A DNA stretch of 64,000 nucleotides, from positions 6,054 through 70,053 of the forward strand of contig JBLINH010000001.1 of the NCBI GenBank assembly GCA_047639165.1, given 5' to 3'. The stretch's first letter is position 1. Each line of letters begins with the position of its first letter. Positions 1 through 36,556 of the stretch are shown here, piece after piece. Source of the stretch: Minisyncoccia bacterium. GTDB taxonomy: Bacteria; Patescibacteriota; Minisyncoccia; Phycocordibacterales; JAACPR01. The translations under genes and the position numbers were made by a program. Under the pieces are notes generated by a model, which was not told the origin of the DNA, did no database searches, and saw only the letters and a program-made list of their open reading frames with translations.

Positions 1-545
1 TCAATGCTAATGCTACTAATGATTTCAGGAGAGCACTTCGAGAGTTCATGTTGGCAAAGACTGACAAACTAATTCTTGACCTTAGAGGAAACCCAGGAGG
101 ATTCCTGACCGCAGCTATAGATATTTCAAGTTGGTTCCTTCCAGCAGGAAAGATTGTGGTGAAAGAAGACTTTGGAGGTAAAGAGGACGAAGAGGTATTT
201 AGAAGTAGAGGATACAACATATTTAACGACAACTTAAAAATGGCAATACTTGTAAATGGTGGTAGCGCCTCAGCATCTGAAATTGTTGCAGGTGCACTAC
301 AATCACATGGTATTGCAGAGTTAATAGGAACAAACACATATGGTAAAGGGTCTGTTCAAGAGTTGATGGATATTACAGAAGAAACTTCATTGAAGGTTAC
401 TATCGCTAGGTGGTTAACACCAAATGGGAAATCTATATCAGATGGGGGACTTAGTCCTGATATAGAGGTAGAGTTTACAAATGAAGATTTTGAAGCAAAG
501 AAAGATCCACAGTTAGATGCCGCAATCGATTATTTATTAAAGTAA
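1..545 (+). CDS. C-terminal processing peptidase (S41 family), 5' partial
   Basis: The frame is open from the window start. It carries the S41 motif region [10 protein letters not shown] and a C-terminal tail typical of CtpA-like proteases. Confidence 0.75.
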
Positions 546-550
546 GAAAT

Positions 551-994
551 ATGAAAGTTATTCTATTAAAAGATGTAAAGAACGTAGGAAAGAGACTTGA
601 TGTGAAAGAAGTTAGCCAAGGGTATGGAATGAATTTTCTAATAAAAAGAGGTTTAGCCAAAGTCGCAACAAAGAATGAAGAAGCTAAAGTAAAGATTCTT
701 AAGAGGGAAGAGCAGGTCAAAGGAGAGGTAAGTGACAAGCTAACAGAAAAAGTTTTCTCTCAAATTGACGGAAGAGAGATTACTCTAAAAGCTAAAGTAA
801 ATGAGAAAGGACATTTATTTAGTTCTTTAAATGAAAAACATATTGCTTCAGCAATAGGGGAGCAACTAAAGATTGAGATTAATGCTAAATGGATTGTTCT
901 AAAAGAACCTATAAAAGAAGCTACAAAGTTTTCTGTTCCTATTCAATCAGAGAAACATAAAGCTACTGTTATTCTAAATGTAGAAGGAGAGTAG
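551..994 (+). CDS. rplI: 50S ribosomal protein L9
   Basis: N-terminus [14 protein letters not shown]...VKEVSQGY is typical of L9, and the 147-aa length fits. Confidence 0.9.
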
Positions 995-1010
995 ATAGAT
1001 TGATAAAAAA

Positions 1011-1045
1011 AGAGCCAACACATTGTGTTGGCTCTTTTTTTGTTT
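1011..1045. terminator. Bidirectional rho-independent terminator between rplI and rpmA
   Basis: 10-bp stem agagccaaca/tgttggctct with a 5-nt loop, followed by a T7 run. It sits between convergent genes. Confidence 0.7.
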
Positions 1046-1049
1046 TTCT

Positions 1050-1322
1050 TTAAACAACGTTTACAACTTTCTTTACAACAACTCTGTTGTTGTAACTTGT
1101 CTTTCTCTTAGAAGAGAATTCAACCCTTCCTTCCTTTAGAGCAAATAGAGTATGGTCTTTACCTAATCCAACGTTTTCTCCTGGTAGAATTTTTGTACCC
1201 CGCTGTCTTACAATGATTGAACCAATCTTTGTAACTTGACCAGCATAAAGCTTCACACCAAGATATTTTGGGTTTGAGTCTTTAAGGTTTTTTGTTGATC
1301 CTCCGGCTTTGACGTGTGACAT
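1050..1322 (-). CDS. rpmA: 50S ribosomal protein L27
   Basis: [12 protein letters not shown]...[17 protein letters not shown] matches the L27 signature. Confidence 0.9.
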
Positions 1323-1375
1323 GGTTTATGATTTTTTTATATTTCTTTTATCACTAATATGATAAACAATTAGGT

Positions 1376-1723
1376 ATGACTTTACAGTATATATTAAAAA
1401 AAATCAAGGGAAATAAGGGGTTAGTAGAATATTTACTTAATATAGGAATAATTGGTACAGCTCTATCAGTAGCGTATGGATTAGGGTTAGTGGCTACAAT
1501 ACAGGCTAATGAGCCCAAAATTAGCTTTGAACAGAATGATTTGGTGGTATCCATAAAAGGGAACACTGAAAGTATAGGAAGCTTTTTAGCATCAAAAAAC
1601 GGTACGAAGTACTACCCAACAGGTTGTAAGTCGTCTAATCGTATAAAAGAGGGAAATAAGGTCTATTTTTCTTCTGAAGATGAGGCTAAAAAAGCAGGTT
1701 TTGAGCTATCTAAAACATGCTAA
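1376..1723 (+). CDS. Membrane-anchored small protein with a C-terminal Ada-like/sunset-type domain
   Basis: N-terminal TM helix. The C-terminal YYPTGCKSSNRIKEGNKVYFSSEDEAKKAGFELSKTC resembles the small metal-binding YHxPGC...F.S..EA..AG domain. Confidence 0.45.
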   Translation: MTLQYILKKIKGNKGLVEYLLNIGIIGTALSVAYGLGLVATIQANEPKISFEQNDLVVSIKGNTESIGSFLASKNGTKYYPTGCKSSNRIKEGNKVYFSSEDEAKKAGFELSKTC

Positions 1724-1763
1724 AATCCTTACTTTACACTTGTTTATAGCCATATTTAAGCTA

Positions 1764-1793
1764 TTGACTTTTAGGTAGTAAAGATGCTATAAT
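1764..1793 (+). promoter_or_regulatory. Sigma-70-like promoter (TTGACT-18-TATAAT)
   Basis: TTGACT at 1764-1769 and TATAAT at 1788-1793, upstream of the lytic transglycosylase gene. About 100 nt of leader follows. Confidence 0.5.
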
Positions 1794-1896
1794 AGTGTCA
1801 ACTCAGACACGCGCTGGGTTTTTGTTTTACCTCGGTAAAACAATACGTTTCAAGACTTCTATCAAATTTCCTTGAAACCTGCGTTCGAAATTATGG

Positions 1897-2400
1897 TTGC
1901 ATACGCAGATTATCTTTAAGAATTGGCTTATTATACAATTGACAATCAGTCTTGCCATGCTTGTAGCTTCAGTTACTGGTGCAGGACAAGAAGTCGTACT
2001 CAATCGAGTTGGAACACAACCGATTGAGGTAGAAGAGCGAGTACGAGTAGTAGATGAAATTGTAGTTGAAACTACAACTTTGACAACTAAAGAATACGTT
2101 AACGAATACTTCAAGGATACACCTATTCTTGTAGATGTAGCCTACTGTGAGTCTGGTATCAGACAATTCAGTACTAATGGGCAACCATTACGAGGTATAG
2201 TTAACCCACAAGATGTTGGAGTTATGCAGATTAATGAAAAGTATCACTTAGATACTTCAGTTAGACTAGGCATAGACATCTACACACTTGAAGGTAATCT
2301 AGCTTATGGTAAGTATCTATACGAAACGCAAGGTACAGCGCCGTGGGAATATTCTTCTAAGTGTTGGGGTAAAACCCGAGAAGTAGCGTTGTTAAACTAA
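1897..2400 (+). CDS. Secreted lytic transglycosylase (SLT/GH23-like domain)
   Basis: Signal-peptide-like N-terminus. Motifs CESG, VGVMQIN and EGNLAYGKYLY resemble the SLT catalytic-domain motifs (ES...GLMQ...AYN.G). Confidence 0.6.
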   Translation: MHTQIIFKNWLIIQLTISLAMLVASVTGAGQEVVLNRVGTQPIEVEERVRVVDEIVVETTTLTTKEYVNEYFKDTPILVDVAYCESGIRQFSTNGQPLRGIVNPQDVGVMQINEKYHLDTSVRLGIDIYTLEGNLAYGKYLYETQGTAPWEYSSKCWGKTREVALLN

Positions 2401-2409
2401 CAACAAACA

Positions 2410-2445
2410 AAAGCCACTACATACTGTAGTGGCTTTTGTGTTTTA
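2410..2445 (+). terminator. Rho-independent terminator
   Basis: 9-bp stem agccactac/gtagtggct with loop atact, followed by a T-rich tract tttgtgtttt. Confidence 0.65.
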
Positions 2446-2674
2446 TAAAATATTTAAGTTTTCTTATTTAGAGACATAAACGGGGAAGTGCTTCTCTTTA
2501 AAAAAGAACTCTTTTATTTCCTCCGGAAAAGCTCCGACTCTCGGAGCGAACCCCTCCGGTGTCAGATCGTGCGTAAATGAAACGGTATCGGTAAAAAGGG
2601 GATTTTTAAAAAAATAAAAAGCACCTGTGGATAACTTTAATAGTATGTCGCACAATATATCTTTTATCCTGAAA

Positions 2675-2688
2675 CGTTATACGACATA
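2675..2688. repeat. Inverted repeat arm (CGTTATACGACATA), right copy of a 14-bp IR pair flanking the 210-aa gene
   Basis: It is the exact reverse complement of TATGTCGTATAACG at 3379-3392. Confidence 0.8.
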
Positions 2689-2727
2689 TATACATAAGCC
2701 TTTATATATAAGGCTTATGTATAGTGT

Positions 2728-3360
2728 TTATTCTTTTGCCTTCATCTTCTTGCAGAACTCTTTAAAAGAGGATACATCCATCAGGAATTGGTTCTTTGTA
2801 AGCCCCTTCTTTTTATTCTTTAATAAAATATTCATTTCATCTTGGGATGTGTCCTCATTTATTTGTAAAAATATTACAGGGAACTCGTTCATCATTTTAA
2901 GGTCATACTTACGTAGTTTGCTATTCAAACATCCTAATAAGCTACCTTTGTCATTGGCATAAAAAACATCTACAGAAAAATGTTTCTTTTTATAAGAAAT
3001 AAAGAAATCTGACTTAGCTCTATGATCATCAGTGAAAGAAAAGTTTCTGTGTATACTACGAGGCTCAAAATTGGCTTCTAAGAGTTTGTAAATTTTTTTA
3101 ACGTAGTTTTGTTTACGTAGATATATGTCAGAGGCCCTTTTTGAACTATAAGAACCTTCAGCCAAATTATGTTGGCCGGTAAGTTTCAATTCTTTTCTTA
3201 AATTTACCAGTCCCCCAAACCTTCTTTGAATTTGGCGTGAAGATGGGAGGTCCTCATGTTTATCAAATTCTACAGATGTTGGATACCTTTTATTGACTTT
3301 ATAAAAAGAGGTTAGTCCTTTTTTTATTTTCTTTAAGTCCCAAGTAGGTTTTTTTGGCAT
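2728..3360 (-). CDS. Hypothetical protein with a homing-endonuclease-like N-terminal DNA-binding motif
   Basis: A 210-aa ORF. N-terminal YPTSVEFDKHEDLPSSRQIQRRFGGLVNLRKELKL resembles the PS..TI.RRFGSW..AL helix motif of phage HNH/homing-endonuclease proteins. The gene is bracketed by 14-bp inverted repeats. Confidence 0.4.
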   Translation of the reverse strand: MPKKPTWDLKKIKKGLTSFYKVNKRYPTSVEFDKHEDLPSSRQIQRRFGGLVNLRKELKLTGQHNLAEGSYSSKRASDIYLRKQNYVKKIYKLLEANFEPRSIHRNFSFTDDHRAKSDFFISYKKKHFSVDVFYANDKGSLLGCLNSKLRKYDLKMMNEFPVIFLQINEDTSQDEMNILLKNKKKGLTKNQFLMDVSSFKEFCKKMKAKE

Positions 3361-3378
3361 ACAGTATTATATCATACG

Positions 3379-3392
3379 TATGTCGTATAACG
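3379..3392. repeat. Inverted repeat arm (TATGTCGTATAACG), left copy
   Basis: It pairs with 2675-2688. The two arms are 718 bp apart and enclose the 210-aa gene. Confidence 0.8.
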
Positions 3393-3398
3393 GACTTG

Positions 3399-4421
3399 TT
3401 ATTTCATCATCTTTCTTAAAACAAATAGTTTATACCAAATCTTTTTGTTTACAATATCAAAGAAACTAGAATGGTTTAAAGTTTCACCACCAAATCTTTT
3501 TTTATATAAAGTAAGCTTCTTTAGTGACGGAACTTTGTTTTCATTTGAACTAATACCACCAAAATTGTATTTTTCTAAGCCTAAACTTTTAGCATGTTTG
3601 ATACTCTCAAATTGCGCTTTGTGCGAGTAGGGGACTTTCCTATATGAATCTCCTGACGCTCCATACAAATACATAGCTTCTTTCCCATATGTTATGAATA
3701 GGAAAACACCCACCACTTCCCTATCGATTTTTGAAATTGTTAGGAAGCCATTTTTCTTTTCCTCGATACTTTTAAACACTTCCTTATAGTATTCTTCCGG
3801 ATGTAGAGTGAATCCATTTCTTTTGGATGTAGCGTTCATTAATTTAACAAATACATCAAAATACTCTTTGAAGTTTTCAGAGATTATTTCAATTTCTGAA
3901 TTTTTGCGTTCAGCTAACCTAATACTGTACCTAGTCTTTTGGTGAAACTCTTTAGTGATTTTTTCTATAGGTTTAGTCAGGTCTAGTATCCATTCTGCAC
4001 GTGGTTGGAAGTATGATCCTTTGTACGTTGCCCTGGAGGCTTTATTGAAATACTTTTTAAGAACCCCATCATCTAGTGTTGGATTAAAATCTAATCTAAA
4101 GAATATTCCATTTCTATCTTTGAGTAGTTTGGTTAATCCTTCTTTTAGGAAAGGTAGAACTTTTTCAGTATCGTCTATATTTAATACTGGACCATATGGA
4201 GCATAGAAATATTTTTGTCCAAAAGGTAAGCTCACTTCAATGGCTTGTACGTATGCAAGAACTTTCCCATCTTCTTCTACAGAAAATCTACAAACACTCT
4301 TACCAAGATTCTCATGCCAGGAACCATAGAAAGGAGCTTGGATAAAGGATCCTTTGTTTTTTATGATGAAATCATTATACTTCTCACCACTTTCTATTTT
4401 GTTAAAAGTTAATCCGTTCAT
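3399..4421 (-). CDS. FemAB-family peptidoglycan interpeptide-bridge aminoacyltransferase
   Basis: 340 aa. FemX/MurM-like sequence, including the ...AMYLYGASGD... motif, with a length typical of FemAB. Confidence 0.75.
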   Translation of the reverse strand: MNGLTFNKIESGEKYNDFIIKNKGSFIQAPFYGSWHENLGKSVCRFSVEEDGKVLAYVQAIEVSLPFGQKYFYAPYGPVLNIDDTEKVLPFLKEGLTKLLKDRNGIFFRLDFNPTLDDGVLKKYFNKASRATYKGSYFQPRAEWILDLTKPIEKITKEFHQKTRYSIRLAERKNSEIEIISENFKEYFDVFVKLMNATSKRNGFTLHPEEYYKEVFKSIEEKKNGFLTISKIDREVVGVFLFITYGKEAMYLYGASGDSYRKVPYSHKAQFESIKHAKSLGLEKYNFGGISSNENKVPSLKKLTLYKKRFGGETLNHSSFFDIVNKKIWYKLFVLRKMMK

Positions 4422-5725
4422 TATAGTTTTGGTAAGTATTCCATAGGATCAAGATATGAATCAAGAGAAGCTGCTGGGATGGTTACATTGTAAGCACCAC
4501 ATCCATATGAGCTAGGAGCCACCTCTCTATAGTTAATAACATTAACACCTTGGTTAATATATAGAGAAAGGTGAAGGTGTGGACCTGTACTTATACCTGA
4601 AGTTCCACTATATGCGATTACTTGTCCTTGTTCCACTCTTTGTCCTATCTTAGCAGTTACACTTGAAAGGTGAGCATACATAGTTGAAAGTCCATTATCA
4701 TGTTCAACCAGTATCCACTTACCCCATGAATTACATCCTGGATATGCATCAGTATTATCAGTTCCCTTCACTACACCAGAAGAAACTGTTTTAACTGGTG
4801 TTCCGATTGGTACTCCAAAGTCCATACCATTATGAAATGCTCTACCATATATATGAGTGTTTCTTTTAGCAAAAGCTGTACCACCAAATCGTTGTGTGAT
4901 TATGAAGTTAGAAACAGGCCATCCGAATATACCACTTTTAGCTTTTTGAAATCCATCAGGATCAATGATGACTTGAAGTTGTGATTCAAACTCTAGTAAT
5001 TCTTGTTCGAAAGCATCTTTTATCCTTACCTTTTCAGCTAAGACTTTTTTGTATTCGCTTTCTTCATTCTTTGTTTGAGCCAAGAGGGTATCCTTTTGTT
5101 TCTTTGTATGAGCTACTGCCTCCTTCTTTCCACCAAGAGTCACTTTGGTAGTTTCAAGAACTTCTTTTTCTTCTGTCTCTTCTACTTTCTTTTCGGTAAG
5201 TTCCCCGTTTAGAACTTTCAATGTGTATACAGAGTCTCGAACCTTATCTTGGAAGTTTTCAAGATTGTTTAAGGCAATCCAAAAATCAGACATAGACTCA
5301 TGTCCGAAAAGGATTTCAAGTAGTGAAGTAGATTCAAATTCGTCCAGTCTTCGAAGAGCTTCTCCTAATGCTTCACTATTTAAATCAATCTTTTCAGTCT
5401 TGTTATCTATCTCCACAGATATCTTCTGAATAGTTAATTCAGTTTTTATGATATTAGTTTCAGTGTATTTAATGTCGCTACTTAGTTTATTCTCTGTGGC
5501 TTTAAGTGAGTTTACAGTACCTTGCAAGGAATTTGTTCTTTTGTTTGCTTCTTTAACTTTAGCTTCTTGTTTCTGTATATCTTTATTTATTTCCTCTATC
5601 TTGTTGGAAGCTTGATCAATTTTGTTTTCAAGTTCGTCTACACTTTGGGCGTGCAAAAGAAAAGGAATTAGAAGAATTCCCAAAATTAGAAATATACTTT
5701 TATTTTTTAGAAATCTTAAGTGCAT
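4421..5725 (-). CDS. M23-family metallopeptidase with an N-terminal coiled coil (EnvC/LytM-like)
   Basis: Signal peptide, a long coiled-coil region, and a C-terminal M23 domain with GTSGISTGPHLHLSLY. Confidence 0.85.
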   Translation of the reverse strand: MHLRFLKNKSIFLILGILLIPFLLHAQSVDELENKIDQASNKIEEINKDIQKQEAKVKEANKRTNSLQGTVNSLKATENKLSSDIKYTETNIIKTELTIQKISVEIDNKTEKIDLNSEALGEALRRLDEFESTSLLEILFGHESMSDFWIALNNLENFQDKVRDSVYTLKVLNGELTEKKVEETEEKEVLETTKVTLGGKKEAVAHTKKQKDTLLAQTKNEESEYKKVLAEKVRIKDAFEQELLEFESQLQVIIDPDGFQKAKSGIFGWPVSNFIITQRFGGTAFAKRNTHIYGRAFHNGMDFGVPIGTPVKTVSSGVVKGTDNTDAYPGCNSWGKWILVEHDNGLSTMYAHLSSVTAKIGQRVEQGQVIAYSGTSGISTGPHLHLSLYINQGVNVINYREVAPSSYGCGAYNVTIPAASLDSYLDPMEYLPKL

Positions 5726-7049
5726 GATTGATACGGTTTAAGGTTTTTTCTTTTCCTAGTATTCCGGAAATCTCAAAAGGATCGGGAGACCTGTCTCTTC
5801 CTGAAAGAGAGTATCTCAAAGGCCAAAGAACGTCGCCTCTCCCCTCTTCGTTTGCATATGGCCAGATAGATTCTTTAATTTGAGCTTGTGTGAAATTATC
5901 TTTGTCCATTTCACTTATAATTTCTTTCACTTTCTCTAGATGTTTTACTGCCTCTTCAAGGCCTGTGTCTTTCCAAGAAAGTTTTTCTTTGTCGTATTCG
6001 GGCTGTTCATCGAAGTAGTCAAGTTCTCCATTTTTAATCATTTCATCTATGTCACTTATCTTCACTATCCTATCCAATATCACAGGTTTTAGTTTTAGAA
6101 TTGTTTCTCCGTCGAAGTTTAGTTTCATTAGTTTTTCAGAGACACAATGACAAAAATCATCATCAGAAAGAAGTTTTAGATATTCTTTGTTAAACCAATC
6201 TAGTTTTTCTGTATTAAAAATAGCTCCTCCTTTTTGAATTTGATTCAGAGAAAAACTTTCAACTAGTTCATCTAGTGAGAATATCTCCTGATCTGTTCCA
6301 GGGTTCCATCCAAGCATTGCTAGGTGGTTGATGATGGCTTCTTTTATGTACCCTTTCTCTCTGTAGTCTGAAATTGAAGTAGCACCGTCTCTTTTACTCA
6401 TTTTACTCTTATCCTTCCCTAGGATAAGGGGTAGATGGACGTATACTGGCCGTGGTGCACCGATTGCCTCTTGAATGAGTATTTGTCTGGGGGTGTTTGA
6501 AATACCGTCTTCACCTCGAATTACGTGGGTCACACCCATTTCGTAGTCATCCACTACAACAGCTAAGTGATACAAGGGTTCTGTGAACGATTTAGCGAGA
6601 ACAAAGTCTCCCAATTCTTCTGTCTTGAATTCTATCTCACCTCGTATTTCGTCGTTAAAAGAAATTATTTTGTTAGGATTTCTAAACCTAATCACTTCAG
6701 ATCTTGAACCTTCATCTTTTGGTTCTTCTTTTGAAACATATGCTTTATTTGTGTCCACTAAGTCCTTAATATATTTTTCATATATTTCAGTTCTTTCTGA
6801 TTGACGATATATTTCATCATGACAAAGATTCAACCAGTCCATACCTTCCAGTATGTTGGTTTCAAATTCTTTGGTACTTCTTTCCTTGTCAGTGTCTTCA
6901 ACACGAAGGATGAACTTACCACCGTACTTTCTAGCAAAGAGATAATTGAAAAGAGCGGTCCTCGCTGTACCAATGTGTAAATTACCAGTTGGTGATGGAG
7001 CGATTCTAGTAACTATTTGTTGTTTTTTATTTTTGAATATTCCGAACAT
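5700..7049 (-). CDS. gltX: Glutamate--tRNA ligase
   Basis: Class I HIGH motif (RIAPSPTGNLHIGTARTALFNY), KMSKR motif, 449 aa. Confidence 0.9.
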   Translation of the reverse strand: MFGIFKNKKQQIVTRIAPSPTGNLHIGTARTALFNYLFARKYGGKFILRVEDTDKERSTKEFETNILEGMDWLNLCHDEIYRQSERTEIYEKYIKDLVDTNKAYVSKEEPKDEGSRSEVIRFRNPNKIISFNDEIRGEIEFKTEELGDFVLAKSFTEPLYHLAVVVDDYEMGVTHVIRGEDGISNTPRQILIQEAIGAPRPVYVHLPLILGKDKSKMSKRDGATSISDYREKGYIKEAIINHLAMLGWNPGTDQEIFSLDELVESFSLNQIQKGGAIFNTEKLDWFNKEYLKLLSDDDFCHCVSEKLMKLNFDGETILKLKPVILDRIVKISDIDEMIKNGELDYFDEQPEYDKEKLSWKDTGLEEAVKHLEKVKEIISEMDKDNFTQAQIKESIWPYANEEGRGDVLWPLRYSLSGRDRSPDPFEISGILGKEKTLNRINHALKISKK

Positions 7050-8176
7050 TATTCTTCGTGTTTTAATGCAGTTTTTATAATCTCAACAGCTATCTTTCTA
7101 CCAGCATCTGGAACTGCAAACTTTTTAGCATTCTCAATCATATTATTCCTGTAATCTTCGTTTTCAAATATTCTTGTGATTTCTCCCATCAATATTTCAG
7201 GTGTTGCATTGTGCTGTTCGATGACAACTCCTGCTCCACTACGTGCGTAGTTGAAAGCATTTGTTCTTTGATCATGACTAACGTCTTCAGGTATTGGAAT
7301 GATAATACTCGGTTTACCCCAAAGAGCAATTTCAAATAAGGAAGATCCTGCGCGTGTGATTACAAGAGAGCAGGCTCCTGCTGCCATTTTTACCCCAACA
7401 TCATTTAAATATTTCACAGGTTTGTATCGATCTTTGAATTCAGATAACTCTAACTTCATGTCTGATACTTTAGTTACTTGTTCAAAATTGTTCTGTCCTG
7501 TCTGATGTATGACTTGATACTTTTTCACAACATCTGAAAGAATATCAATGATTGCATCGTTGATAGCCCCAGCTCCTTGTGATCCTCCTATTACAAGAAT
7601 TATCGGGACGTCTTCTTCGAGTTCAAAGAATTTTGCACCTCCCTCTGGTGTCGGTATCTGTACAGCTTTTCGAATTGGGTTTCCAGTAAAGGCTACTCTC
7701 TCTTTAATGAAGAATTCTGCTGCTTCAGGATATGATACAGCAATCTTGTTGGCAAACTTACCAGCCCAAAGATTGGCTTTACCTGGCTTACTATCAGATT
7801 CGTGAATAATAATAGGAATATGTAATATTTTTCCTGCAATGACAGTAGGGATACTTCCGTAACCACCTTTGGAAAATATTACATCAGGATATATTCTAAA
7901 AATTACCCAAATGGCTTGGAATATACCGATAATTATTTTGAATAAATCTACAAAGTTTAGTAAAGAAAAATACTTTCTCTTTTTTCCTGATGTCACATAT
8001 CTGTACTCAATATTGTGATCAGACAGTAGACCTGAATTATATTGGCCTGGTGCCACAAAATACATCTTTGGATTTACCAATTTCTTTTCTCTGACTAATT
8101 CTGTCACTGCTTCTGCTACAGCAATGATTGGATAGAAATGTCCGCCTGTTACTCCTCCTGTGAATACTATTTTCAT
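7049..8176 (-). CDS. murG: Undecaprenyldiphospho-muramoylpentapeptide beta-N-acetylglucosaminyltransferase
   Basis: MKIVFTGGVTGGHFYPIIAVAEA is the MurG N-terminus. The likely ATG at 8176 follows a TATAAT; the ORF track extends to a TTG at 8209. Confidence 0.85.
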   Translation of the reverse strand: MKIVFTGGVTGGHFYPIIAVAEAVTELVREKKLVNPKMYFVAPGQYNSGLLSDHNIEYRYVTSGKKRKYFSLLNFVDLFKIIIGIFQAIWVIFRIYPDVIFSKGGYGSIPTVIAGKILHIPIIIHESDSKPGKANLWAGKFANKIAVSYPEAAEFFIKERVAFTGNPIRKAVQIPTPEGGAKFFELEEDVPIILVIGGSQGAGAINDAIIDILSDVVKKYQVIHQTGQNNFEQVTKVSDMKLELSEFKDRYKPVKYLNDVGVKMAAGACSLVITRAGSSLFEIALWGKPSIIIPIPEDVSHDQRTNAFNYARSGAGVVIEQHNATPEILMGEITRIFENEDYRNNMIENAKKFAVPDAGRKIAVEIIKTALKHEE

Positions 8177-8198
8177 AAAGTAGATTATATCATATGAA

Positions 8199-8232
8199 AA
8201 GGGACGCAACTCGCGGGTTGCGTCCCTTTATC
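8199..8232 (-). terminator. Rho-independent terminator between ftsW and murG
   Basis: 10-bp GC-rich stem gggacgcaac/gttgcgtccc, with a T-run on the minus strand. Confidence 0.65.
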
Positions 8233-35519: not shown

Positions 35520-35738
35520 TTACTTAACGTATATTTGCAAGATAAAACTTACAATCATTAGCGATATTCCTACGACCGCGTATAACTTCTCTTTTTTAAT
35601 AGTAGTGTAAACATCTTTGTCTAGCTTGTGTTCTTTAAGTACGTGAGAATGTACTCTGACAACAGCCATGGCAATTAATATTTCTCCTAAAAGTTCTAGT
35701 GTTAGTGCTAAAGTGTACATAGTAATTAATGTGAGCAA
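35520..35738 (-). CDS. Small 2-TM membrane protein (72 aa)
   Basis: Two hydrophobic helices. Overlaps the 3' end of the ATP-cone/Mrr gene by 13 nt. Confidence 0.45.
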   Translation of the reverse strand: MLTLITMYTLALTLELLGEILIAMAVVRVHSHVLKEHKLDKDVYTTIKKEKLYAVVGISLMIVSFILQIYVK

Positions 35739-36556
35739 ATAATATCAATATTTTCTATAATCTCATCGATCTTTTCATCTGACAATCCTATTTCTTTCAT
35801 AACTTCTCTCTCGTCCCTTAGAGATCTACAATTAACAATTCCTCTGTCAAGAAGTTCATTCTTATTACTCTTTGAGAGCTGAGCTACACAAGTTAATGGG
35901 TGTAGAGTCGTCTCTTCCATAAGATCGTACAGATTCCCTTTTTTGGGGTAGTCCCAACTGATGAGATCATACGTTCCAACACAGTTAACGTATTTTCGAG
36001 CTGTGTGGGTAAACTTGGTGTTTGTAACCATTAGACCCTGAGTCATTTTTCTTTTTTTACCTCCCAAATGAAATTCTTCACTCTGAAGGTCATCAAAACG
36101 AGCTTTTATATACAAAGCTGTTTTTGTATCTGTTTTTATTCCACTTTTGTTATGAAATTTGGCTTCAGTGATGATAAGCTCCTTTTCGTTATACGCAATA
36201 ATATCTACTTCATGATCAGCACAGTGACCTTTAAGGGTAACTCCTACTTCAGTGGTAAAACCTTTTGCACTGAATATTTCAGCGATAAACTTTTCAAATG
36301 GAAATCCTGAAGGACCAAGATCTAAAACAGATCTTCTGATTGAATATCTTAAGGCAGATTTTTTTTCTGTTTTTTTCAAAAGCTCAAATGCTTCTTTGTA
36401 TATGTCTGTAGTTGTTGAACCGTCTTTAATATCTTTTTGGATCTTACTTGTTATGTCGTTTGCGACAAATACAGTTGCCCCTGCACGCTCTAGTGATCCT
36501 TTTAACTTATCAGGATCGAAAGACTCTTTTTCCCCATTGTTCTTAACGATTTTCAT
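35726..36556 (-). CDS. ATP-cone domain fused to an Mrr-type (PD-(D/E)xK) restriction-endonuclease-like domain
   Basis: N-terminal MKIVKNNGEKESFDPDKLKGSLERAG...RYSIRR is a canonical ATP-cone. Then FEKFIAEIF...DHEVDIIAYNEKELIITEAKFH gives a D..(D/E)xK core. Confidence 0.7.
   Translation of the reverse strand: MKIVKNNGEKESFDPDKLKGSLERAGATVFVANDITSKIQKDIKDGSTTTDIYKEAFELLKKTEKKSALRYSIRRSVLDLGPSGFPFEKFIAEIFSAKGFTTEVGVTLKGHCADHEVDIIAYNEKELIITEAKFHNKSGIKTDTKTALYIKARFDDLQSEEFHLGGKKRKMTQGLMVTNTKFTHTARKYVNCVGTYDLISWDYPKKGNLYDLMEETTLHPLTCVAQLSKSNKNELLDRGIVNCRSLRDEREVMKEIGLSDEKIDEIIENIDIICSH

Follow-up and report, generated by a model that had tools for sequence, protein, structure and literature searches.

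A homing-endonuclease-like gene bracketed by dif-type repeats at a Patescibacteria replication terminus

Why should a small gene be bracketed by perfect inverted repeats, and what are those repeats? We asked this of a 64,000-nucleotide stretch of a Minisyncoccia (Patescibacteriota) genome (assembly GCA_047639165.1, contig JBLINH010000001.1, positions 6,054 to 70,053; hereafter the window). Here a first-pass annotation, made from the letters alone, had picked out a 210-aa open reading frame (ORF) between 14-bp inverted repeats and had suggested a homing endonuclease gene, a miniature inverted-repeat transposable element (MITE)-like cassette, or a gene under tight operator control. What that annotation missed is the context: the repeats are half-sites of dif, and the cassette stands at the replication terminus beside a 28-bp dif. 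We call the gene NUC and its left and right inverted repeats IR-L and IR-R. The cassette is probably a dif-docked, self-regulated nuclease unit of a selfish kind. The more specific reading, that it is a dif-targeting, autoregulated, homing-endonuclease-like selfish gene, is the one we tentatively favor, with a little less than even confidence.

The inverted repeats are as exact as first described. CGTTATACGACATA (2675-2688) and TATGTCGTATAACG (3379-3392) are 100% complementary, lie 690 nt apart and bracket one ORF (210 aa, 2728-3360, minus strand). With up to two mismatches allowed, the 14-mer is found in the 64 kb as these two arms and one two-mismatch match at 36187, and 0 of 100 shuffles gave three matches. 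The copy count that the annotation had proposed as a check therefore returns only two exact copies in the 64 kb; the same motif flanks NUC homologues in dozens of genomes. The partial third copy it had reported is GTATGTCGCACAA at 2643-2655, which we now see as the R arm of the neighboring dif-like site. The parts of the cassette and its docking site are as follows, in window coordinates.

2728-3360, minus strand: NUC, the 210-aa ORF; residues ~1-60 (3181-3360) form a predicted helical, PF18780-like DNA-binding module, and residues ~70-210 (2731-3153) a modelled PD-(D/E)xK nuclease domain.
3379-3392, no strand assigned: IR-L, the left inverted repeat, a dif arm of the R type (XerD-type) that reads TTATACGACAT in the orientation of the gene, with its core at 3380-3390.
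2675-2688, no strand assigned: IR-R, the right inverted repeat, a second R-type arm in the orientation opposite to IR-L, with its core at 2677-2687.
2645-2672, minus strand: the 28-bp dif-like site, TCAGGATAAAA GATATA TTGTGCGACAT in gene orientation, with the L (XerC-type) arm at 2662-2672, the hexamer at 2656-2661 and the R (XerD-type) arm at 2645-2655.
3366-3374, minus strand: extended -10 element TGATATAAT, read from the sequence and ending 5 nt before the ATG, part of the inferred NUC promoter.
2689-2723, no strand assigned: hairpin with perfect 14-nt arms (2689-2702 and 2710-2723) and a 7-nt loop, between the NUC stop codon and IR-R.

The identity of the docking site is central to any explanation of the cassette. 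dif is where replication ends and chromosome dimers are resolved. The site at 2645-2672 consists of two 11-bp arms that are partly dyad-symmetric about a central region of 6 bp, as does the 28-bp dif core described at termini (PMC5357621). Among 107 distinct gene-less sites the consensus is aatGTCGyAAAA GATATA TTGTGCGACrt (for example, ATGTCGTAAAA GATATA TTGTGCGACGT), and both arms are built on a GTCG core (aatGTCGyAAAA / AyGTCGCACAA). Position frequencies at the gene-less sites show the XerD arm to be better conserved than the XerC arm and the inner positions to be the most conserved, within the range of known dif sites; published examples come from Mesorhizobium (AAGTCGCATAAGATAGATTATGG...) and Magnetospirillum (...TTATGCGACAA) (PMC2731167). 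The window holds one dif-like site, and each 12-kb locus from a relative typically holds one as well, with degenerate extra copies adjacent to it in some loci.

Replication evidence points to the same place. Plus-strand GC skew is +0.146 to the left of ~2.67 kb and negative throughout 2.7-64 kb, and all long ORFs lie on the plus strand left of the site and on the minus strand right of it. This skew switch and convergent gene orientation indicate that the forks converge at about 2.6 kb, and the window thus contains the replication terminus of a Paceibacteria chromosome (Patescibacteria/Candidate Phyla Radiation, CPR). The pattern recurs in relatives: upstream skew exceeds downstream skew in 31 of the 39 homologue loci with enough flank, with flanking ORFs converging on the site, and among 17 loci with enough flank from a gene-independent scan described below (16 gene-less), convergence is seen in 15 and divergence in none, with mean skews of +0.068 and -0.056. 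Given its 11+6+11 design, its position at the terminus and its likeness to published sites, the site is best read as dif, a host feature at which binding and recombination by Xer are predicted. Two other identities were set aside. A replication origin, prompted by a perfect DnaA box at 2626-2634, is at odds with genes and skew that converge instead of diverging, and an integron attC site has R''/R' core sequences that the motif does not fit. In the 64-kb window, which is part of the genome, no Xer gene was found by Pfam on 10 ORFs or by tblastn with an approximate E. coli XerD query. With that query, XerD-like genes appear 0.3-1 kb from the site in four gene-less loci (L099 1787-2677, L078 1441-2016, L126 503-3 and L139 1092-604) and somewhere in two more (L149 and L179). 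XerD-like genes near a dif-like site recall the single modules xerS-difSL and xerH-difH. We found no paper combining dif or Xer with Patescibacteria, making this the first such site that we have found described there.

The repeats of the cassette belong to this same site family. In the locus of the closest homologue (58% identity, same M23-GltX-MurG neighborhood) and in that of a 51%-identity homologue from a different neighborhood, the gene has the same motif on both sides. In 54 species-level genome loci of ~12 kb each, TGTCG[CT]A[CT]AA is nearly confined to the gene flanks. The repeat is not a product of chance, since the motif flanks homologues in dozens of genomes and is almost absent from the rest of each locus. 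The repeats are conserved although the proteins have diverged to 42-58% identity. In the Paceibacteria layout, with the gene drawn on the plus strand, TTRTGCGACAT stands 13-29 nt before the ATG (~23 loci); shortly after the stop codon come ATGTCGCAYAA, exactly 21 nt (ssTAyc cGCGTAAAA GATATA), and then TTGTGCGACrt. The occupied-site consensus is accordingly TATGTCGcAtAA ssTAyc cGCGTAAAA GATATA TTGTGCGACgt. The 21-nt spacing, a 15-bp offset, is fixed in all Paceibacteria homologue loci, with IR-R and the R arm about 31-32 nt apart start-to-start; the window shows the same spacing, with exactly 21 nt separating IR-R from the dif R arm, which places IR-R 15 bp outside the L arm position. More distant relatives (31-37% identity; Moranbacteria, Doudnabacteria and Saccharimonadia) have a plain 11+6+11 palindrome 1-43 nt past the stop codon (e.g. 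ACGTCGCATAA TATACA ATGTGCGACGT), that is, dif alone, with 6-bp spacing, intact GTCG arms and no extra arms.

Occupied sites are themselves remodelled. The GTCG core of the L arm is present at 78 of 112 gene-less sites and at 0 of 24 occupied ones (p=4e-11), and the changes at occupied sites are limited to arm positions 1-4. These positions also vary among known dif sites (PMC2731167), so an occupied dif can plausibly still serve Xer. The two repeats, meanwhile, vary together. Their variants (TTATAC, TTATGC and TTGTGC) are concordant within a genome in 15 of 23 cases, against an expected fraction of 0.30 (p=4.5e-4, with kinship ignored), and the dif R arm remains TTGTGC in the same genomes. IR-R and the dif R arm could conceivably act as an RNA hairpin, in which C/T changes opposite G would preserve G-U pairs. 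Recognition at the DNA level is favored, since IR-L, which lies upstream of the promoter, varies in the same way.

Repeats of this kind could also be a product of Xer recombination itself. On this account the cassette would be an Xer-recombination unit, such as an xrs cassette, a pdif-module-like unit or a decayed IMEX (an integrative mobile element that exploits Xer); the host Xer recombinase would bind the arms, the gene would have arrived at dif and might still be exchanged or inverted there, and the nuclease would be either cargo or a helper through which Xer is activated for the element, as by XafT in TLC-phi. Several features of the sites fit. Each repeat combines an R-type arm with a 6-nt, central-region-like rGTAgC, of which IR-L includes the CG, and IR-L and the dif R arm are directly repeated, as are attL and attR of an integrated IMEX. 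A circle junction of IR-R and IR-L would give a near-perfect dif-like palindrome. A recognizable second arm remains beside IR-L in two loci (ATGTCGCTTGA-5-TTATGCGACAT in L004 and ACGTCGCCAGT-7-TTGTGCGACGT in L008), dif-like sites are arrayed in alternating orientation in some gene-less loci, and inversion of the gene+dif unit against the backbone is seen in 6/28 occupied loci versus 4/73 gene-less ones. Precedents exist in the Acinetobacter xrs cassettes, which also have inverted flanking sites with divergent central regions (PMC11705084), and in the GGI, which is bounded by dif and a degenerate dif (PMC5357621). The junctions, however, are unlike those of a simple attP x dif crossover, as the join at IR-R falls 15 bp outside the L arm, not in the central region. 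The outer arm is degenerate and not conserved at IR-L and is absent at IR-R; the IR variants differ from the dif R arm of the same genome, which is unexpected if one Xer protein reads all three. The cargo is a single protein family, always at the chromosomal dif, in contrast to the variable cargo of pdif modules. Finally, no circular, plasmid or phage form was found in the phage and plasmid collections, and the two contigs classed as viral that hold distant relatives lack a full 11+6+11 site. We regard an origin as an Xer cassette as unlikely, though it deserves serious weight.

Gene-less loci carry some further dif-like copies. In six of them (L065, L081, L086, L104, L110 and L126) a second, degenerate and inverted copy lies within 60 nt on the L-arm side, and a seventh (L136) has a tandem L arm instead, with the 15-bp offset of occupied sites. 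These extra copies may be scars of lost cassettes or Xer-site arrays.

How often is dif occupied? We scanned metagenome contigs with the 18-mer AAAGATATATTGTGCGAC, which recovers loci without bias as to the gene (120 loci), and counted occupancy with the family hidden Markov model at the 84 distinct sites with at least 900 nt on the relevant side. NUC is present at 3/84 distinct dif sites (about 4%) and absent from the other 81, and the backbone is the same in occupied and empty loci. The search for an empty site that the first-pass annotation had recommended thus succeeded, and presence or absence at one homologous site is what a homing endonuclease gene would produce. The dif site is a common host feature, and the NUC cassette is a rare add-on to it. 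Many Paceibacteria share a conserved terminus synteny, MurG-GltX-M23 | dif | (SLT-like, 115-aa protein)-L27-L9-S41 protease, with the gene present or absent (e.g. window 1-8209, L008, L017, L064, L083 and L145), and in gene-less loci dif points the same way relative to this backbone almost without exception (69 to 4). Where the gene is present, it lies on the L-arm (XerC-type) side and is transcribed toward dif in 31 of 33 loci, among them the six in which gene and dif are inverted together.

Comparison of occupied and empty loci also bears on whether the cassette inserted as a transposon would. Between L013, which is occupied, and L083 and L064, its closest gene-less counterparts (L27 91% and MurG 78% identical), no target-site duplication was found, and the extra DNA in L013 falls in the interval from the flanking gene's stop codon to the inner part of the L arm. 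A MITE or similar transposon-like cassette with terminal inverted repeats, or else a plain gene with two operators unrelated to dif, would account for a perfect 14-nt inverted repeat around a single ORF with one copy at the promoter. Yet there is no transposase; the sole ORF encodes a protein modelled with a restriction-endonuclease fold; repeat and gene are single-copy in the window and the 12-kb loci; and the repeat has the sequence of the dif arm next to it and is found with the gene only beside dif. We consider both versions highly improbable. Of the two suggestions the annotation had made along these lines, the MITE falls away, and tight operator control survives to the extent that one repeat overlaps the promoter, whereas a plain operator unrelated to dif is contradicted by the repeats being dif arms.

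The history of the cassette is harder to read. Occupied and gene-less genomes are interleaved, as seen in the 79% identity of GltX between L011 (occupied) and L092 (empty), and occupied genomes can share only ~45-55% GltX identity; the window GltX is 47-59% identical to that of other occupied loci in the Paceibacteria group. NUC divergence correlates with that of the host proteins GltX and M23 (r about 0.66-0.68), and in a smaller set of loci with full-length MurG as well the correlation is poor (Spearman 0.14); this comparison did not separate repeated loss from horizontal gain.

The NUC protein supplies the enzymatic part of the argument. The ORF is a genuine gene. A search gave 84 homologues at E<=1e-3, each unnamed or annotated as hypothetical and each from Parcubacteria/Paceibacteria metagenome bins, and a profile search of 1.8 billion representatives returned 225 clusters at E<=1e-30. 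The homing-endonuclease-like N-terminus that had been noticed by eye corresponds to PF18780 ('homing endonuclease associated repeat'). NUC itself matches it weakly (E 0.042, 14.6 bits against a Pfam cutoff of 26), and the match recurs in 22/40 family members (best E 1e-5), giving the family a DNA-binding module of the homing endonuclease type. The C-terminal part has no match in Pfam, NCBIfam, PHROGs or PDB sequences (the last searched by single sequence and by profile), apart from one spurious weak match in NCBIfam. Structure prediction, proposed earlier as a check on the 210-aa protein, confidently models this part as PD-(D/E)xK, with the alpha-beta-beta-beta-alpha-beta core of restriction endonucleases, and the guess of a D...E.K-like nuclease was essentially right at the level of the fold. 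D118, D131, N146 and K148 are invariant in the family, and E87, H104 and E106 are near-invariant (>=90%). In the predicted model the catalytic-type residues are D118 on strand 2, D131 on strand 3 and K148 on the next helix. The NUC family is an unannotated Patescibacteria PD-(D/E)xK subfamily joined to a known homing-endonuclease-associated repeat.

Some family members depart from this architecture. The homologue at L135 8077-8620 is split over two frames, apparently by a frameshift, and is either a pseudogene or an assembly error. P0078 (363 aa) fuses an N-terminal RNase H/RVT_3-like domain to a NUC family member, and other proteins, P0213 and P0214 (886 and 821 aa), carry only the N-terminal repeat, in 10-11 tandem copies. 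Distant relatives also occur on the two IMG/VR contigs classed as viral (L180 and L181), each with a lone L-type half-motif.

The position of IR-L suggests how the gene may be controlled. The repeat sits ~5-8 nt upstream of the -10 box, over the -35/spacer region of the inferred NUC promoter. A consensus promoter scan of the locus did not find a canonical -35/-10 pair; TATAAT-like boxes occur at the equivalent place in homologous loci, in many of which TTGTGC and TATAAT are 17 nt apart. With the -10 element ending 5 nt before the ATG, the NUC mRNA may be leaderless or nearly so. In several family members (window 3358-3374 and homologous loci) 5-11 nt separate the end of the box from the start codon, which hints at transcripts with little or no leader. 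At the other end of the gene, the internal hairpin reported by the first-pass annotation is real and larger than the 9 bp at 2693-2722 given there; it is probably a terminator or transcript-end hairpin where transcription converges. Rfam gave no match near the locus at the gathering threshold and only sub-threshold, hairpin-type matches in permissive mode, and a known RNA gene or riboswitch was ruled out on this basis.

A putative promoter-proximal binding site at a terminus gene also raises the prospect of a protein that benefits the host. NUC might bind DNA at specific sites, perhaps as a nickase or nuclease, and serve either as an Xer accessory factor at dif, where accessory sequences would lie on the XerC side in the manner of cer/psi, or as a Tus/RTP-like fork trap, in which inverted binding sites flank the protein's own autoregulated gene at the terminus. 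The cassette is placed exactly at the terminus on the XerC-type side of dif, helical phasing is fixed (15-bp offset, 32 bp from IR-R to the R arm start-to-start), one site overlaps the gene's own promoter, as TerB does at the tus promoter and IRI at rtp, and protein divergence roughly follows host divergence. On the other hand, the low occupancy of dif and the existence of gene-less close relatives indicate that NUC is not a core Xer/dif partner. Its invariant catalytic-type residues point to an enzyme and not a roadblock, neither Tus nor RTP is among the structure-search matches listed, and the distant relatives have dif itself and no extra arms. A host-beneficial terminus factor seems to us distinctly unlikely.

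We return to the homing-endonuclease-like selfish gene, for which the following mechanism can be proposed. The N-terminal module would bind ATGTCG(C/T)A(C/T)AA arms, and binding at the promoter-overlapping IR-L would autoregulate NUC. Where dif is gene-less, its two arms are 6 bp apart, a spacing at which a dimer could bring its nuclease domains together over or beside the site and cut it, after which repair from a cassette-bearing copy would install the cassette, as with a free-standing homing endonuclease. The target would be an essential site that the host cannot mutate away. In the host's own copy, the GTCG-bearing arm is displaced by 15 bp (21-nt in place of 6-nt spacing), which would block productive cutting and still leave Xer with a functional substrate. 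Stated in full, NUC would represent an undescribed selfish or accessory class: a PD-(D/E)xK nuclease that reads the XerD-type dif arm, is autoregulated through the arm copy at its promoter, and either homes into gene-less dif or reprograms Xer, with the host dif remodelled by 15-bp arm displacement. We offer this fuller version more guardedly still, as a possibility somewhat short of probable.

Several observations weigh against a homing selfish gene. It may be the host's Xer recombinase, and not NUC, that binds the arms. Self-immunity through a displaced arm cannot be general, because deeper-branching relatives adjoin a canonical dif with 6-bp spacing and intact GTCG arms. Homing would need two alleles to meet in one cell. 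No NUC relatives turned up in a tblastn search of phage and plasmid collections. The modelled D...D...K arrangement, with its lysine on the following helix, appears rearranged and non-canonical relative to D...(D/E)xK. Moreover, the correlation of NUC with GltX and M23 divergence at deep levels and the conserved synteny with the 58%-identical homologue are what vertical descent would give, and long vertical inheritance with frequent loss fits as well as homing does.

Other features surround the cassette in the window. Upstream of NUC is FemX (3399-4421; Pfam FemAB, E 3e-30), as the first-pass annotation had it, with an M23 peptidase beyond; the cell-wall hydrolase it placed on the other side, the ORF at 1897-2400 past the intergenic region, is only weakly SLT-like (Pfam, E 0.25). 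Intergenic DNA beyond dif (2460-2600) is locally G+C-richer (ccggaaaagctccgactctcggagcgaacccctccgg...) and contains inverted segments; it has no Rfam match, and its only ORF is an unconvincing one of 63 aa. Farther away, 35726-36556 on the minus strand encodes a 276-aa protein with an unusual pair of domains, an ATP-cone and an Mrr_cat restriction-endonuclease domain. Next to dif itself is one more element, which may be foreign to the cassette.

2626-2634, minus strand: perfect DnaA-box sequence TTATCCACA, inside the conserved AAAGTTATCCACAGG, 11 nt past the dif R arm.

A DnaA box at a terminus is unexpected. The same stretch can be given as TTATCCACA within AGTTATCCACAG (window 2624-2638). 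A box in the same orientation 11-26 nt from the R arm occurs at 7/137 distinct sites, against ~0.2 expected from background frequency; besides the window, the loci are L001/L002, L020, L025, L063, L095 and L153.

dif is among the most conserved non-coding sites in bacterial chromosomes. To our knowledge, the elements that exploit it are IMEX phages and islands, IS1202-type insertion sequences (IS) and plasmid xrs cassettes, all of which use recombinases or transposases. We found no relevant paper on a homing-endonuclease-like nuclease family physically coupled to dif, and the combination seen here, a nuclease docked on one side of dif, extra XerD-type arms as flanks and putative operator, and a phase-fixed, remodelled dif, appears undescribed. 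The NUC family spans several Patescibacteria lineages. If our interpretation is correct, the dimer-resolution site would have in NUC its first nuclease-based parasite or partner, and dif would be defined in the CPR. NUC is a testable candidate for a protein that reads an Xer arm, and occupied sites are a natural experiment on how much remodelling of a dif arm is tolerated. In practical terms, the signature aatGTCGyAAAA GATATA TTGTGCGACrt within the MurG-GltX-M23 | dif | L27-L9-S41 synteny could be used to locate termini in uncultivated CPR genomes.

Compared with known systems, the cassette mixes features of homing endonucleases, xrs/pdif cassettes, IMEXs and the dif-targeting IS1202 elements, and it appears to lack some defining features of each. 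The site it adjoins resembles E. coli XerCD/dif and B. subtilis CodV-RipX/dif in its 28 bp, its two 11-bp arms and 6-bp center, one arm better conserved than the other, and inner parts that are the most conserved; like other chromosomal dif sites of the Xer system it is intergenic at the skew switch, with a sequence within the published range. In cassette genomes it differs in its remodelled XerC-type arm and in the extra XerD-type arm 15 bp outside. Free-standing PD-(D/E)xK homing endonucleases (I-Bth0305I of the EDxHD family; I-Ssp6803I) are a comparison for the protein, although no sequence-level relation to them was found in NCBIfam, PHROGs or PDB sequences. Unlike these, NUC is associated with no intron or intein, its proposed target, an essential recombination site in non-coding DNA, persists intact next to the gene, and the gene is bracketed by copies of the target half-site, one of them a putative operator.

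Among elements that exploit Xer, Acinetobacter xrs cassettes and pdif modules likewise have a gene bounded by Xer-type sites that are mostly inverted and differ in their central regions (PMC11705084), and IMEXs (GGI, VGJ-phi, and TLC-phi with XafT) are located at dif, flanked by dif and a degenerate dif, with no recombinase of their own (PMC5357621). The NUC cassette departs from all of these in being chromosomal, at the main dif, with a single constant cargo family that looks like a sequence-specific nuclease; only one arm and the central part of each flanking site are kept, and the junction is placed 15 bp outside the dif arm. Cargo that varies and moves between replicons, typical of xrs and pdif units, was not seen: the same family recurs at chromosomal termini, with no plasmid matches. 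IS1202-family elements insert in a specific orientation a few bp from the XerC-binding side of dif or pdif, are 1.5 kb long and have 24-26 bp terminal inverted repeats (PMC10132070), whereas the NUC cassette has no transposase and no duplication, and its repeats are dif arms. Proteins of the terminus itself offer a further parallel in layout. At tus/TerB and rtp/IRI-IRII, a terminus gene lies beside inverted copies of its binding site, one of them in its own promoter region. NUC shares with tus and rtp the terminus location, the inverted copies of a presumed site and the copy at the promoter. It differs from Tus and from the winged-helix RTP, folds not seen among the structure-search matches listed, in a fold modelled as restriction-endonuclease-like, in its conserved catalytic-type residues, and in presumed binding sites that are the arms of dif.

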